Positions 15,001 through 24,000 of a stretch of 64,000 bases of DNA are shown one piece after another. How positions within the stretch are numbered: the first letter of the stretch is position 1; each line of letters starts with the position of its first letter. This DNA is from an uncultured delta proteobacterium (lineage in GTDB: Bacteria > Desulfobacterota > WTBG01 > CAIYCZ01): positions 1 through 64,000 of the forward strand of contig CAWDOY010000053.1 of the NCBI GenBank assembly GCA_963803975.1, in the 5' to 3' direction. A program made the position numbers.

Positions 15001-18000
15001 TGAGCGCAGTCTTCTTACCGTATCGCAAGCGTACCCGTGCATATCTGGGTTCCGGTTAACACGGTTACTATCTTATTACCCTTACCAATGAGGTACTGAG
15101 GCGGCACCATTGCCAGCACCTCGATTGCAGTAGGTGTGATGAGAGTAGTTCTAATGTAACGGAAGCCCTGGATACTTATTGCGCTGGTCTCATCAAATGC
15201 ACCGCCTTCTGTCTGAATTTTGATCCGTGCGAACAGCGGGATAAGAAATCCGGATCTGACGGATTCCGGATCAACCGTCAGCGAGCAGGACGGCGGCGGA
15301 TTCGGTATCGTTGTAGTTGTGGTTATACCGCCTGAACAGCTTGAGTGACAGGTAAGGCATGAACCGCCGTGCTGCACTATTAGATTACATTTGCCCGGAG
15401 AGGTCAGGGGGTGGCATTTTACGCAGTTCCCGGGGCTCACATTGCCTGCCTGCGGAGTGCCGTCATGACATTGGGAGCAGTTGCCGTGTCCTGAGCGTGC
15501 ATGCAGGTCGCTCACTGTATGGCATCCCGTGCAGTCATCAATATGTCCATACGCTGGCGGGGCAGTAGTGGTGGAGGTCGACTGATTTGGTATAGTGGTC
15601 GTTGTAACACCGCCTGAACAGTTTGTGTGACAGGTGAGGCATGAGCTGCCGTGATTAGTTATTAAATTACACTTACCCGCAGCACCCAGAGGATGACACA
15701 CGATACACTTGTCAGCCTCTACGTTGCCTTTTGCAGGAGTTCCTGCATGGCACGATGCACAGGTTTGGTGCCCTGGATGGTCATGTAAATCACTCGAAAC
15801 ATGACAGGTGAGACAGATACTGAAATGATCGCTGGGAGGCAGCACCGTGGTGGTAGAAGATCCTGCGCCGGTTGTGGTGGTTGTTGATCCAATGGTTGTG
15901 GTGGTACTCGGTGCGCACATAGCGGGAGTGTGGCAGGTGTTGCATGAGCTGCCGTGGAACGCTACTAAATTACACGTACCGGGTTTGCCAGTGGGGTGGC
16001 AGCCTGCGCACTTGCCAACATCCGCATTACCAGCTGTCGCTGGAGTTCCCGTATGACAGTAGGTGCAATTGTTGTGTGCTGGCTTAGCATGTATATCACT
16101 CACTTCATGACAGGTGAGACACAGGGCATTGTGTCCGCTTGGAGCTGAAGCAGAAGTGGTGGTAGAAGATCCTGAACCGGTTGTGGTGGTTGTTGATCCA
16201 ATGGTTGTGGTGGTACTCGGTGCGCACATAGCGGGAGTGTGGCAGGTGATGCATGTGCTGCCGTGGAAAGCCACCAGGTTACACTTGCCGGGGTTGCCCA
16301 CCGGGTGGCATGAAACACACTTGCCATCATCAACATTACCTGCCTGCGGCGGCGTGCCGGTATGGCAATAGGTGCAATTATTGTGCGCTGTTTGCGCATG
16401 TAAATCACTCACTTCATGACAGGTGAGACATTTGCTGATGTGGCCGGTTGTGCTTATAGCAGTGCTGGTGGTAGAAGACCCTGGACCGGCTGTGGTAGTG
16501 GTACTCGGTGCGCACATAGCGGGAGTGTGGCAGGTGATGCATGTGCTGCCGTGGAAAGCCACCAAGTTACACTTGCCGGGGTTGCCCACCGGGTGGCATG
16601 AAACACACTTGCCATCATCAACATTACCTGCCTGCGGCGGCGTGCCGGTATGGCAATAGGTGCAATTATTGTGCGCTGTTTGTGCATGTAAATCATTCAC
16701 GTAATGGCAGGTGAGACACTGGTCGGTGTGTCCGCTTGGGGCGGAAGCAGTAGTGGTAGTAGACCCACCTGGAATGCTGGTTGTTGTTCCTCCGCCTGAG
16801 CTGGTTGTGGTGCTGCCGCCACCGATGCTGGTTGTGGTACTGCCCCCGCCGGTACTGGTTGTAGTATTTGAGATAGTAGAAGTGGTAGTGGTAATCGGCG
16901 CTCCGCCGGAACAGCTCTTGTGGCAATCAAGACAGCTTTGGGTTACAAGCTGGGCATGCACGTCCACGATCTTACAGTCGCCGGTGCCGCTGAGCGGGTG
17001 GCATGCAGAGCACTTGTCAGCCGTCACATTTTTACCCGGGGTGCCGTTTGGATGACAGCTGCTGCAGGTATTGTGTCCGGACCGGCTGTGTATGCGCAGG
17101 CTGTTTGTGGAACTGAAATCCGTGGGATGGCATACCACGCAGCTGCTCATATGATTATTTGTGGTGTTGCTATCACAGTCAACATGGCAGGTGAGACAAT
17201 TTGCTCCATGAAGAACAGGTGTGGGTAGGTTTATTAGGTTACATACTCCCGGGCTGCTGCTGGGATGGCAGACGACGCACTTGTCCGGCTTTACATTGCC
17301 TGGCCCGGGGGAGCCTGCGTGGCAAGCGCTGCAGTTGCTTTGATGGGTGGTAACACCGTGTAATGAGCTTGCGGGATGACAGGTAATGCAGGTTTCAATG
17401 TGTGGAACAGGTTCCTGGATCACAGATGAGGTAGTGGTGCTTAATACGCCCACGGTTATGGTGCCATCATTACCTGTGACAGTAATAACACCCCCGGTGG
17501 CGGTCGACGCACTGGGGTCGTTGCTCAGCTGGTAGCTGGTAGCTGGAGCGCTGCAGTTTATCGCAAAGGTGACATTAGCGACAACTCCGTTGCCGATGTT
17601 GTTCACATTTGCTGAGGAGAAAATACCCACCCGATACAGTCCTGGTGATACAATGTTAGAGGCTGCTGATTTCCCTGCTGCTGTTCCTGCCGGCCCTACT
17701 GCGACACTTACCGGGGTTAGAAATTCGCTGTTGTACCCGATATCCGTAGCAACACCAGCAACCGGGGCTATGCCGTCGTTGGTCAGGGTTACGGAGATGA
17801 TAACCTGTGCGCACTGGTTACCTGAAGCAGTGCCAAGGTCAACAGTAGGTGTTGCCTGTGCAGCACCTGCCAGAAAAAGGGACAAAAGCGCTGCAAACAT
17901 TGTTATCCTGCCATGAGCTGTTTTCATATCACTTGGTTCTCCATGAAAATTTACTGCTATATATAAATTATAATGCCTGTAACGTAAAAAGATTTTATTG

Positions 18001-21000: not shown

Positions 21001-24000
21001 ACGTTCCTGAAAGATGAACCACTATCCACTGCATCAGGGTCTCCTGCCAGTAGCGGTCTGCCGGCAATGTATGCATTCACGCTGTCTGTTGATTGCCGAC
21101 CCTGGTGGCATACCATGCAGCGCGCTTCCGGACCCAGACCCGTGAGCGTAAGCTTGGGAATCGGGGGCACTGCAGTGGCATCACCGGTGGACTCGAGCAC
21201 CACGCTGGTCAGCTCACTTGCCTTCTGGTTATGACATGCCTCGCAGGAGACGACCGTGCCGATCGGTGCCGGGTTATCTACCACACCGGCTGCGGTGCCG
21301 TCTGCGCCCAGGTAGTCAAGATAGCCCGGGGTGCTGTGGCATTTGGCACAGCCGACAGGAACCGCTGGGGTACAGGTTGTGGCTGGGGGTACAGGAGTAC
21401 ATTCATTCCAGTCATTGAAGGCCTCAGCAGTAGTGTCTGCATGGCCGGATTCCTTCCATAGCTCTTCCTGGGGTATCACGTCAACCGTGGGGCAGGCACA
21501 TTCCTTGGTCTCCAGGAAGCAGTTGATGGCCTTGATCACATCATCAATCGAAACCTTGTTGTCTGCGGTTGGATCACCTAAGGGATCGACCGGGTCTAAC
21601 CCCAGAAACATTCTCACTTCCATCAGTATTTCGTTAAGGGCGGTTACGCCGTCCAGGTTAAAGTCAGCGGTCTTGGCAGTAAAGAAACTGCCTGACACGC
21701 AGGCGATCCCCAACGCGTTTCCTGCAGGGTCAGATGCGCTGCACAGGTTGGTCAGGTCTACGCCGCCTACCGGGTTCTTCTTCAGCGTGAAATTTACATA
21801 GGCCACTACGCCATCGCCGATGGGGGTGGTGTTGCCTTCGGTAAATACGCCAACACGCACTACGCCGGGTGACAGCAGGTTGAATGAAACAGTTTTACCC
21901 ACTGCTGAGCCGGCCGGCCCGATGGTTGCGCCGGTGAAATCTAAATAACTGTCATTAAACGTGATGTCCGTGCTCACACCGGCAATATTGGGTGCTGCAC
22001 CGGCAGTGTTGACCAGAGTAATCGGCATGACCGCTGCTGCGCCAAAAGAAGCGCACGGCAGCGCGATATCTGCTAACTTTAATTCTGCTGCAGTTGCCGC
22101 ACTGCATAAAGGCAGGATGAAAAGACATACAAGAAATAGGGTTTTAAAATACTTCATTCGTCAACCTCCTAAAAAAATATTTAAATTTAAATTGTTGGTT
22201 GGTTCCCCTTGTTAGCTTTTCTCCCCTTGAACAAGGGGGAAAATGTGTTAGTTATATATATATACTTTCAAAGCATGAAAGGTTATTAAGGGTTATTTAT
22301 ACTTGCCGATTAATCTAAACCGCTACATAAACGGTAGATTAATTTTCATGTATCACGTATTTTTATATCCGCTGTTTCATTACCCTTAGCTGCTGAGAGC
22401 CTTTTGTCTGATGGAACATGGTCGTTTCAGATTAAAAAATCGATTACTGTACAAAATCATACATCAACAGTATAATTATTCAAACAGTACTAACTACCTG
22501 ATTTTTAAAATAATTATGCGAATAACTACGTATGAAAGGAAAAAACATAGGTGGAAACTACTGATATGAAAAGATAGGGCAGGTTGAATATGACAGCGAC
22601 GCACTTCCAGGTTGGCAATGGATAAACAGAAACATTGACTTTATTTATAAATAATTATAAAATAGAACTTCATTTTTCATTACCTGCCTTTATATAAAAA
22701 AATAAATGTAAAATTAAATAGGTATGTTATGTCTCGCAATCGAATTATTTTTTTTGTTGTGTTTATCATCGCGATATTTACGGGTGTCTATTTTTTAATA
22801 GACCTTTTCGGGCAGCATGCTCTGAACAGACTGTATTCACCCACCAAGCGGATAAGCCTTGAAAAAGGTTATAAGGAAAATATACAAAAAACAATATTCG
22901 TTAACGACCCCCATGAACCTGAGATCCGTATTGCAATTGCACCCATCATGTCTCCTGAAAAATCCCTTCCGATATATAAGGATCTCATCAATTACATGGG
23001 CAAAGTTCTTAACAGGCAGCCGGTTCTGATGCAGAAATCGAGTTATTCTGAAGTAAATGATTTATTGCATTATGATGGCTGCGATGTTGGCTTTGTGTGT
23101 ACCTATCCCTATGTGCTCGGCGAACGTGATTACGGCCTGAAACTGCTGGTTATCCCGCGCATTCGACGGGAAAATAACCATGCACGGTCATTCATCATAG
23201 TACCTGCAGACAGTAAAGCCCAGTCGCTGCTGGATCTGCGGGGAAAGCGTTTTGCTTCCTGCGATATTATTTCGCAAACCGGCTGGATATATCCGGCGAT
23301 CTGGCTTCTGAAGCATGGGGAAAATCCAAAGGAGTTCTTTGGAGAACATATTATCTGCGGAAGCCATGACCGGGCTGTCGGGGCGGTGGCAGACACAGTT
23401 TGCTGATGGGGCTGCTGTTCAAAACCTGGTGTATGAAAAAATGGTTGCCGATGACCCATCTCTGGCCGATAAAGTCCGCATTATCATGAAATCTGAAGAA
23501 TACGGTATAGCCCCCAATAGTTGCAAACCCGCGCATGGATCCGGTGTTGCTGGAGACACTCCGCAAAGCGTTGCTCTCCATGCACGAATCAGCTGAAGGG
23601 AGGGCAATCCTTAACCGGATGGGCATCGAACGCTATGAGGTCCCTGAAAGCAGCCTGTATGACAACTCGCGGGGTGATGCTGAGCTATGGAATCCCAGGT
23701 CGTAATTTTCTTAAATAGTATTTTAAATCGGGCGCGCCGGGCACTGAATCAGCTTTTTAACAGCTTTGTTTCCGTGCCGATTTTTATAAAAATTCTCGGA
23801 GTGGGGATGTTCGTTGTGGTACTGTTTGGGGCGATCGTGCTCTATCGTACGCGCATCAGCGTGGCACGGACGTTCTACGGCATGCTTGAAAATGAAACAA
23901 AGACCCTGGCGCTTATGGTTGCAGCCAATTTAGAGCGGCCACTGGCAGTTAGAGATTATTTAAGCGCACAGTTAGTTTTAAATGATGCCAAACAGATTTA

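Follow-up and report, generated by a model that had tools for sequence, protein, structure and literature searches.

Exported multiheme cytochromes with built-in cohesin and dockerin-like modules are probably clipped together or onto the cell surface in an uncultured Desulfobacterota bacterium

Exported cytochromes are known to be held at the cell surface by lipid anchors, porin complexes, S-layer fusions or filaments. The locus analysed here, within the first 64,000 nucleotides of contig CAWDOY010000053.1 (assembly GCA_963803975.1, an uncultured delta proteobacterium from sediment; this stretch is called the window), raises the question of whether cohesin and dockerin modules built into the cytochromes themselves could serve the same end. 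Three co-oriented genes on the minus strand (A, B and C) are concerned, and the genome-wide survey's note had read them as a cellulosome-like scaffold. The genome is 98% complete yet frameshift-prone. The features of gene A are:

19346..22157, minus strand: gene A, split in the assembly by one extra base
21678..22082, minus strand: cohesin of A (Pfam 24.9 bits; fold Z 16.2 to 6kgc_A)
21507..21674, minus strand: dockerin-like domain of A, two predicted calcium-loop/helix repeats abutting the cohesin (sequence and two model helices)
19349..21476, minus strand: pair of multiheme modules in A (module 1 OcwA/NrfA/OmhA-like), no CxxCK
20480..20484, no strand: extra base in the assembly, absent from the contigs of runs X1 and X20

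Gene A encodes a signal peptide, a cohesin, a dockerin-like domain and a duplicated multiheme module (the two copies are 35% identical in the intact homologue P0299), with nine CxxCH motifs (five and four in its two pieces) and one CxCH; the survey's description of a secreted cohesin, dockerin-like, nine-CxxCH protein is borne out, the CxCH being additional. The frameshift it had reported is present in the assembly, but one base is missing relative to the assembly in the contigs of two independent runs, X1 (DNA, at 20484) and X20 (an RNA library, at 20480), and the break is probably a long-read error. Unbroken homologues of A are 923-940 aa long, including P0293 (940 aa, 89% and 83% identity to the two halves), and the architecture is maintained to about 45-50% identity (P0180, P0023). 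A genuine pseudogene is ruled out because the X1 and X20 contigs lack the extra base and P0293 is intact; the cohesin-cytochrome fusion is real, one extra base explaining the split. The identities previously given for database proteins of 923 aa (89%) and 883 aa (55%) were not reproduced, the values recomputed per half being 83/73% and 49/43%. The second copy, which had been placed at C52:1-3002, exists and is longer, extending to about C52:3240 (91.6% DNA identity over 2704 bases); it starts with a tetraheme bead ahead of the cohesin, an order shared by P0022 and P0031, each a single ORF.

All three gene products have a cohesin that scores above the curated cut-off of Pfam Cohesin (PF00963, 24.1 bits), with 24.9 bits for A, 49.1 for B and 41.8 for C. 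The AF2 model of residues 26-222 of A (pLDDT 91.9) matched type I cohesins, with a Foldseek E of 2e-10 and, across 132 residues, a Z of 16.2 at rmsd 2.4, and the top 20 matches in the structure comparison, made with the A model, were all cohesins (Z 11.7-16.2), confirming at the level of the model that this domain has the cohesin-type nine-stranded beta-sandwich fold, and with it the cohesin identity claimed by the survey. CaCohA2 binds its dockerin through the beta3/5/6/8 face (described in part of PMC7608827). Positions that the profile alignment maps to that face rank with the most conserved ones across 193 family cohesin domains (Lys 97%, at the contact residue Tyr66; Arg 90%; Asp 89%), and these three residues of the putative binding face are present in A, B and C. 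The beta8 loop carries Thr in B and C as against Asp in A and in 70% of the family, so that B and C may not accept the A dockerin.

The segment following the cohesin of A is likely a dockerin. At loop positions 1, 3, 5 and 12 both repeats, each about 22 residues long, have an acidic or hydroxyl side chain (in repeat 1, position 9 is Ala in A and Ser in the C52 copy), and the model places helices at 149-159 and 179-189, in agreement with the two calcium-loop/helix repeats proposed earlier. In both structure searches with the model of residues 26-222 the listed matches were taken up by the cohesin. The call had been described as lying below the Pfam cut-off; this stands for A itself, which gave no match to the Dockerin_1 profile (PF00404, curated cut-off 22.9 bits), but not for its relatives P0127 (28.3 bits) and P0056 (35.5 bits), both of which pass, and 15 of 40 aligned relatives matched Dockerin_1 at E<=0.01. 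A dockerin family profile was built from 40 of the 150 listed relatives; P0127, though left out of it, scored 58 bits, and searched against the PDB the profile found dockerins at E 0.005-0.05, but EF-hand proteins too. The genome encodes three dockerins in total: that of A, that of the C52 copy and one on an fn3 protein at C35:52273, where the survey had noticed the same domain; this last one (Dockerin_1 13.3 bits) occurs without any cohesin.

Module 1 of A compares best with OcwA (Z 9.6, rmsd 3.5, 198 aligned), NrfA (9.3) and OmhA (8.5). Among 48,161 chains the top six were OcwA, three NrfA, ONR and OmhA, and the next one fell to Z 4.1; by its model, module 1 belongs to the NrfA-like pentaheme core group with long C-terminal helices, at modest Z values. 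Foldseek with module 1 returned nothing at E<=0.001, and PDB sequence searches with the A module gave no OcwA/NrfA/OmhA-type relative. The CxxCK motif of the catalytic NrfA heme was found in none of 120 relatives, and every motif of A ends in His. The survey had called the cytochrome OmcB-type, and the C-terminal half of Geobacter OmcB, a lipoprotein, presumably resembles the A module; no entry named OmcB occurred among the 120 listed matches, the PDB sequences or NCBIfam, a paper search returned nothing, and the Atlas offers automatic c3/c7 names only. Of 113 A relatives without a cohesin, 68 have a lipobox-like signal, versus none of the eight fused proteins with an intact N-terminus (these eight being close kin); by pattern, the other 45 of the 113 likewise have no lipobox. 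The survey had matched the cytochrome part in 2 of 20 order relatives, a count that rises to 8 of 20 at E<=1e-10 (two of these above 50% identity). The cassette, in turn, was matched in 0/20 order relatives and in 0/80 genome loci of the A cytochrome.

Genes B and C lie downstream of A:

17995..19215, minus strand: gene B, with a signal peptide, one cohesin, a Thr-rich linker and two further beta-type domains
15015..17927, minus strand: gene C, with a signal peptide, a single cohesin and a run of seven tetraheme beads, followed by a C-terminal domain (~90 aa)
17454..17852, minus strand: cohesin of C (Pfam 41.8 bits)
15318..17408, minus strand: seven beads of C, each with 4 CxxCH plus 2 extra Cys and 4 extra His (5 in one bead)
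15018..15290, minus strand: C-terminal domain of C, also in Thr-rich heme-less secreted proteins at C3:299408 and C29:6314

Gene B contains no CxxCH and is a candidate socket or anchor; what had been called a heme-less cohesin scaffold protein is heme-less, but with its single cohesin it is no scaffoldin. A full-length relative of B (28% over 391 aa) adjoins a dockerin-ended gene in locus L157. Gene C contains 28 CxxCH in its beads, as the survey had stated for a cohesin fused to Thr-linked heme repeats: the linkers between beads measure 0, 52, 17, 24, 23 and 16 aa, and the five of 16-52 aa are 50-71% Thr+Ser. The extra residues suggest bis-His ligation and one disulfide per bead. The PDB sequences nearest to the bead are the c7-like chains 3ov0 (E 4e-8) and 3ouq (2e-4), both weak matches, and neither these nor the Atlas matches (0.90 and below) provide a family name; beads without the cassette are present throughout the class, and this class-wide tetraheme bead is apparently an unstudied small cytochrome module. 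Both cytochrome types are widespread without the cohesin-dockerin cassette, which is dispensable, a point against the tether reading given below. Neither B nor C matched SLH, PEP-CTERM or the CFI-box, and each ends in an unnamed beta-type domain. That of C is shared with large adhesin-like proteins, and a family profile made from it, built without B, did not match the C-terminal domain of B.

As a cassette, the cohesin-dockerin tandem is generic: many secreted proteins that are otherwise unrelated carry it. Among the best 150 cassette relatives, 141 have no heme motif, and 84 of the 150 listed have the same tandem, with 4-17 residues between profile ends, on proteases, PKD, Lcl and fn3 proteins among others. 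No heme-cohesin fusion was found in 14 cohesin loci from five genomes of the class, or in 11 loci from 8 of 400 genomes of the phylum (a lower bound, with at most two candidates scored per genome). The four cohesins of this genome are each single copies in separate proteins; with one cohesin per protein and only three dockerins, there is no cellulosome-type scaffoldin. Given also the generic nature of the tandem, the term cellulosome-like scaffold is not supported, and an array could arise, from what the sequences predict, only by head-to-tail chaining of A.

We lean towards the reading in which the cassette is a lineage-restricted graft and the dockerin of A docks on B or C, tethering cytochromes; the domain content, the folds, the intactness of the genes and the conserved gene order are established, while both the binding and the location are inferred. 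In a single narrow lineage, a mobile cassette would have been added to two types of exported multiheme cytochrome that already existed. It would work as a plug-and-socket tether where relatives often have a lipid anchor. A, B and C would all be exported, with heme supplied by the neighbouring system II. Since the two modules of A abut with almost no linker, its calcium-bound dockerin would bind the cohesin of another molecule. B might then be the heme-less socket keeping A at the surface, and C a socket with a flexible 28-heme string, near which A, as an OcwA-like terminal cytochrome, could be kept. Having one plug and one socket, A may also link head to tail into short chains, with B or C as their ends. 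Electrons might come from or go to an MtrA/MtrB-type conduit encoded on contig C20, where an MtrA-type decaheme gene adjoins an MtrB/PioB porin gene (41.8 bits), and would cross from bead to bead when these touch briefly, as in PgcA. As a cohesin-dockerin bridge is several nanometres long, hemes on its two sides could exchange electrons directly only if linkers flex. The assembly would likely serve to respire solid or humic acceptors in the sediment, or to store electrons for them; dsrA was not found in the genome.

The strongest alternative is that the tandem is self-contained (an intramolecular clasp, a closed homodimer or a calcium-stiffened spacer), the cohesins of B and C being non-binding Ig-like stalk or adhesion domains. 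The recurrence of the closely spaced tandem on proteases, PKD, Lcl and fn3 proteins and the differing beta8 loop of B and C speak for it, and we consider it possible, if unlikely: elsewhere in the phylum stand-alone cohesin genes adjoin dockerin-ended genes (L157, with the B relative, and L158, L154, L145), B and C retain the residues of the putative binding face, and the C35 dockerin stands without any cohesin. More doubtful is a proposal that goes beyond the short chains of the tether reading: calcium-dependent self-polymerisation of A, giving head-to-tail chains with a 9-10-heme head per unit, rooted on B and capped by C. Such chains, if true, would make an extracellular electron-transfer network held by cohesin-dockerin pairs, not by stacked filaments or porin complexes, and other phyla may have arrived at one independently.

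An extracellular location and an electron-transfer use of A, B and C are inferred in the tether reading. If the modules bind in the periplasm instead, the tethered complex would store electrons there or pass them between inner membrane and MtrA/MtrB conduit. Signal peptides alone are evident, no porin or secretion gene lies beside A-B-C, and the chains nearest to the bead, 3ov0 and 3ouq, are presumably the periplasmic GSU1996. Set against this are the fold of A, closest to the cell-surface OcwA and OmhA, the sharing of the C-terminal domain of C with adhesin-like proteins, the three secretins encoded in the genome and the extracellular position of the architectural analogue PgcA (part of PMC10570954), and we judge the periplasmic complex distinctly improbable. 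Neutral domain shuffling in a lineage with a modular, Thr-linked secretome, leaving modules as relics without an electron-transfer role, would fit the many combinations in which beads, cohesin and C-terminal domains occur and the lack of a cassette match in the order relatives, but it is very improbable given the architecture kept in P0180 and P0023, the two copies in this genome and the conserved gene order.

The tether reading differs from the systems known so far. Cellulosomal type I pairs (CaCohA2-CaDoc0917, 6KGC; A. cellulolyticus ScaB6, 5NRK/5NRM) have the same cohesin fold (Z 16.2 and 15.9) and likewise a duplicated calcium-loop/helix partner domain, but identity is 15-19%, A carries cohesin and dockerin in tandem, each protein has one cohesin with no scaffoldin, and the cargo is heme instead of glycoside hydrolases; a non-cellulosomal cohesin of Archaeoglobus (PDB 2XDH) matched at Z 15.2. 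Outside cellulose degradation, cohesins and dockerins are described, in parts of PMC9012536, PMC10553843 and PMC5244752, from ANME archaea and partner bacteria, on ABC substrate-binding, S-layer and adhesin proteins, and 'MHC adhesion' is raised as a speculative role in part of PMC5244752. Among the 'cytochrome' places in the ANME domain tables, 19 of 20 were covered and none of these is a heme domain, whereas here the modules sit inside cytochrome chains. Module 1 resembles in fold two surface cytochromes of NrfA fold, OcwA (6I5B) and OmhA (6QVM); A differs by its two modules, the lack of CxxCK and the N-terminal cassette. OmcB/C are encoded in porin-cytochrome operons (part of PMC11492766), whereas A has neither a lipobox nor an adjacent porin gene. 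The 'heme-tethered redox strings' of PgcA from Geobacter sulfurreducens (part of PMC10570954) resemble C in having cytochrome beads on low-complexity Thr-rich linkers, a likeness of architecture with no homology claimed: PgcA is built of three monoheme beads joined by Pro-Thr linkers, whereas C combines a cohesin with seven tetraheme beads on linkers of Thr, Ser and Gly.

A fusion of this kind was not described in the literature searched, which lay outside subscription journals; in that literature only ANME/SRB papers and a biotechnology review came up for cohesin or dockerin together with cytochromes. The main text of Desulfuromonadia/Desulfobacterota cytochrome surveys is without the words cohesin or dockerin, and part of a preprint on modular cytochrome evolution names no such fusion. 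A cohesin-dockerin tether, if true, would be a further route for holding exported cytochromes at the surface, the 'MHC adhesion' idea of PMC5244752 becomes directly testable with three small soluble domains, and natural heme-bearing cohesin and dockerin parts could be used in designer redox assemblies; should the modules turn out not to bind, what is left is a lineage-specific domain fusion.

The operon had been placed beside ccsAB, and two features bear on this:

14911..14949, minus strand: 16-pair hairpin 3' of C, consensus match only
10792..13343, minus strand: resB and ccsA, system II cytochrome c maturation (ResB 333 bits, Cytochrom_C_asm 197 bits)

The hairpin probably ends the A-B-C transcript (14 hairpin-type sites were found versus 9.8 expected). 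Because the hairpin, another ORF and an opposite-strand gene lie between C and resB/ccsA, the latter are neighbours, as stated, but belong to a different run of genes. Promoter-type sites numbered 16 (11.8 expected). Of 30 bins, 25 and 26 were covered by the contigs of two RNA libraries that belong to a single study, with A, B and C covered in part; this coverage was taken without a silent control stretch and is not proof of transcription. The A-B-C order recurs in L020, that of B-C in L007, L008, L012 and L014, and that from C to resB also in L006.

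Three cohesin genes lie in a row in the window, followed by a hairpin:
22157-19346, minus strand, gene A (cohesin, dockerin-like domain and two multiheme modules)
19215-17995, minus strand, gene B (heme-less protein with a cohesin)
17927-15015, minus strand, gene C (cohesin and seven tetraheme beads)
directly after A, B and C in gene order, 16-pair hairpin

The CxxCH counts and Pfam cohesin matches of A, B and C agree with those of the genome-wide survey's note. Gene A is split at about 20480-20484 by one extra base, absent from contigs of two independent runs, and the cohesin-cytochrome fusion proposed in that note is borne out by homologues of 868-940 aa that are intact across the break (identity to A per half from 89/83% in P0293 down to 49/43% in P0180). 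All these intact homologues have 9 CxxCH and one CxCH; since 105 of 113 cohesin-less relatives have 10 CxxCH, this CxCH could be what has become of a tenth heme site. Frameshifted genes are numerous in this assembly (4.25 Mb, 57 contigs, 98% complete). We conclude that the fusions are real and lineage-restricted, a common connector cassette (cohesin and dockerin-like domain side by side) placed on two uncharacterised cytochrome families. The second copy of A reported on contig C52 is present (91.6% DNA identity), but it extends over C52:1-3240 (L141), and a tetraheme bead precedes its cohesin (13 CxxCH in all, several frameshifts). It sits at the contig end, with B and C absent after it; bead and cohesin share one unbroken frame in P0022 and P0031. 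The interval between C and resB (13545-14774) contains a c554-like tetraheme gene on the opposite strand, together with a charged ORF of 228 aa that has no match in a Pfam search. Metagenome locus L006 has both of them as well, and in L008 the ORF comes after C.

The structure model of A residues 26-222 (40 sequences, pLDDT 91.9) has cohesins as its best structural matches, and the 56 residues that follow the cohesin form two calcium-loop/helix repeats. The Dockerin_1 profile does not match A itself, but it matches 15 of 40 aligned relatives at E<=0.01 and relative P0127 exceeds the cut-off. The family profile reaches cellulosomal dockerins (E 0.005-0.05), intermixed with EF-hand proteins; the segment is likely a divergent dockerin. 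The search with A's tandem among 1.84 billion representatives gave 394 matches, of which the 150 listed were examined: 84 have the tandem, 141 have no CxxCH and six have at least three. A domain scan of 66 found, among others, subtilases, metalloproteases, PKD, Lcl, fn3 and vWA proteins. Since these listed relatives are mostly heme-less and belong to varied secreted proteins, the cassette is an ordinary one and what is rare is the heme fusion. Searching 20 order relatives gave no match to the cassette in any of them.

The cytochrome family of A is large (at least 2297 matches among 8000 candidates scored) and is matched in 209 stretches of genome sequence, of which the 80 best come mainly from Chloroflexota, Planctomycetota, Myxococcota-like and Aminicenantes records. 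The cassette is present in seven of the best 120 proteins and at none of those best 80 loci. The label 'OmcB-type' given earlier to this cytochrome is a tentative one. The first multiheme module (model pLDDT 90.2) resembles OcwA, NrfA, ONR and OmhA in fold (Z 8.5-9.6, next match Z 4.1; Foldseek gave no significant match). A lipobox-like signal, by our own pattern, occurs in 68 of 113 cohesin-less relatives versus none of the eight fused proteins with intact start, which are close kin; this suggests that the cassette took over attachment.

Each of the seven beads of C has 4 CxxCH, 4 spare His (5 in one bead) and 2 spare Cys, counts that would predict four bis-His hemes and one disulfide. Neither Atlas nor PDB matches provided a family name. 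Eleven proteins were found with C, including four others with cohesin and 16-20 hemes and four bead strings without cohesin. C matches 16 of 41 other class genomes, never via the cohesin among the matches listed, and 14 of 16 inspected class loci encode bead proteins. These carry between one and six beads, in most cases a linker rich in Thr, and a C-terminal domain that is of one of several types. Hence C is a bead string of the kind typical for the class, to which a cohesin was added; its architecture is similar to that of PgcA in excerpts of PMC10570954. The bead is a class-wide module (class relatives L103-L118; window 15318-17408) on Thr-linked secreted proteins. The C-terminal domains of these proteins, either helical and CFI-box-like or beta-type, are interchangeable and may serve as sorting signals particular to a lineage. 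CFI-box-CTERM matches occur at 32 places in the genome, 13 above cut-off, including window 8213-8380 and 60436-60627; one terminates a frameshifted BNR-repeat protein (8015-11017). Shuffled forms in metagenome loci L016, L017, L015 and L018 comprise bead-cohesin-other domain, heme-less cohesin and bead-cohesin-bead string.

The genome has four cohesins, each in a protein of its own, and three dockerins, including the following:
C35:52273-52899 (L142), small protein with signal peptide, fn3, Thr linker and dockerin
No cohesin lies near this gene; the two opposite-strand genes after it resemble, by eye, an insertion element. Because the cohesins are single and the dockerins only three, this set is not a scaffoldin system, and the cellulosome-like scaffold of the note should be cut down to one-to-one tethering, chain formation being a bold, putative extension. 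We lean slightly towards a model in which A, B and C would be exported to the cell exterior and A's dockerin would plug into B or C, possibly into another A. Such docking is proposed to keep the OcwA-like cytochrome of A close to the flexible heme string of C.

Gene order, paired loci and interface conservation offer indirect support for docking. Among 16 metagenome loci, L020 has an intact A, B and then a bead-cohesin gene, and B is ahead of C in L007, L008, L012 and L014; in L157, which belongs to a different family within the phylum, a relative of B over its full length is followed by a dockerin-ended secreted protein, and a stand-alone cohesin is paired with a dockerin gene at three further loci of the phylum. 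On the strands mapped by profile alignment from the dockerin interface of CaCohA2 (beta3/5/6/8, in excerpts of PMC7608827), a Lys (97%), an Arg (90%) and an Asp (89%) are conserved in 193 family domains, and A, B and C retain all three. These residues could equally form a structural salt-bridge network instead of a binding face, and in the beta8 loop B and C have Thr where the family has Asp, which speaks against docking with A. Profile searches recognised no known type of anchor on B or C, another point against the docking model, and so is the frequency of both cytochrome types without the cassette. Among the alternatives, a self-contained cassette with non-binding cohesins seems unlikely to us. 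A periplasmic assembly is less probable still, and neutral domain shuffling is the least credible, very improbable.

Under the docking model, electrons would flow into the A/C assembly from a candidate conduit:
C20:38147-40778 (L140), MtrA-type decaheme and MtrB/PioB porin, together
This pair has no adjoining MtrC-like gene. In the literature, searches for cohesin or dockerin with cytochromes turned up ANME/SRB genomics papers and one review; a mention may exist in supplements or subscription journals. Excerpts of PMC9012536 and PMC10553843 regard cohesin/dockerin proteins as adhesins or scaffoldin-like, those of PMC5244752 give a speculative role in 'MHC adhesion', and none of the 19 (of 20) 'cytochrome' places checked in the domain tables of PMC9012536 was a heme domain. 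The main text of two Desulfuromonadia/Desulfobacterota cytochrome surveys mentions neither cohesin nor dockerin.

Part of the locus is present in 20 of 24 listed runs; these 20, from 15 studies, are sediment, freshwater, wetland or unlabelled metagenomes. Record labels place a close CcsB relative in Proteobacteria/Pseudomonadota and homologue P0180 in Thermodesulfobacteriota. A search of the genome for dsrA found none; 40 open frames have at least three CxxCH. About a dozen multiheme frames are clustered at C19:13189-33718 (mostly within L143); one of them is a cohesin-less A paralogue whose N-terminal domain differs. At C40:29324-31779 and C41:727-3007 there are a cytochrome frame with 22 hemes and multiheme frames related to it. 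Each adjoins two-component genes that are nearly identical, so the region may be duplicated.
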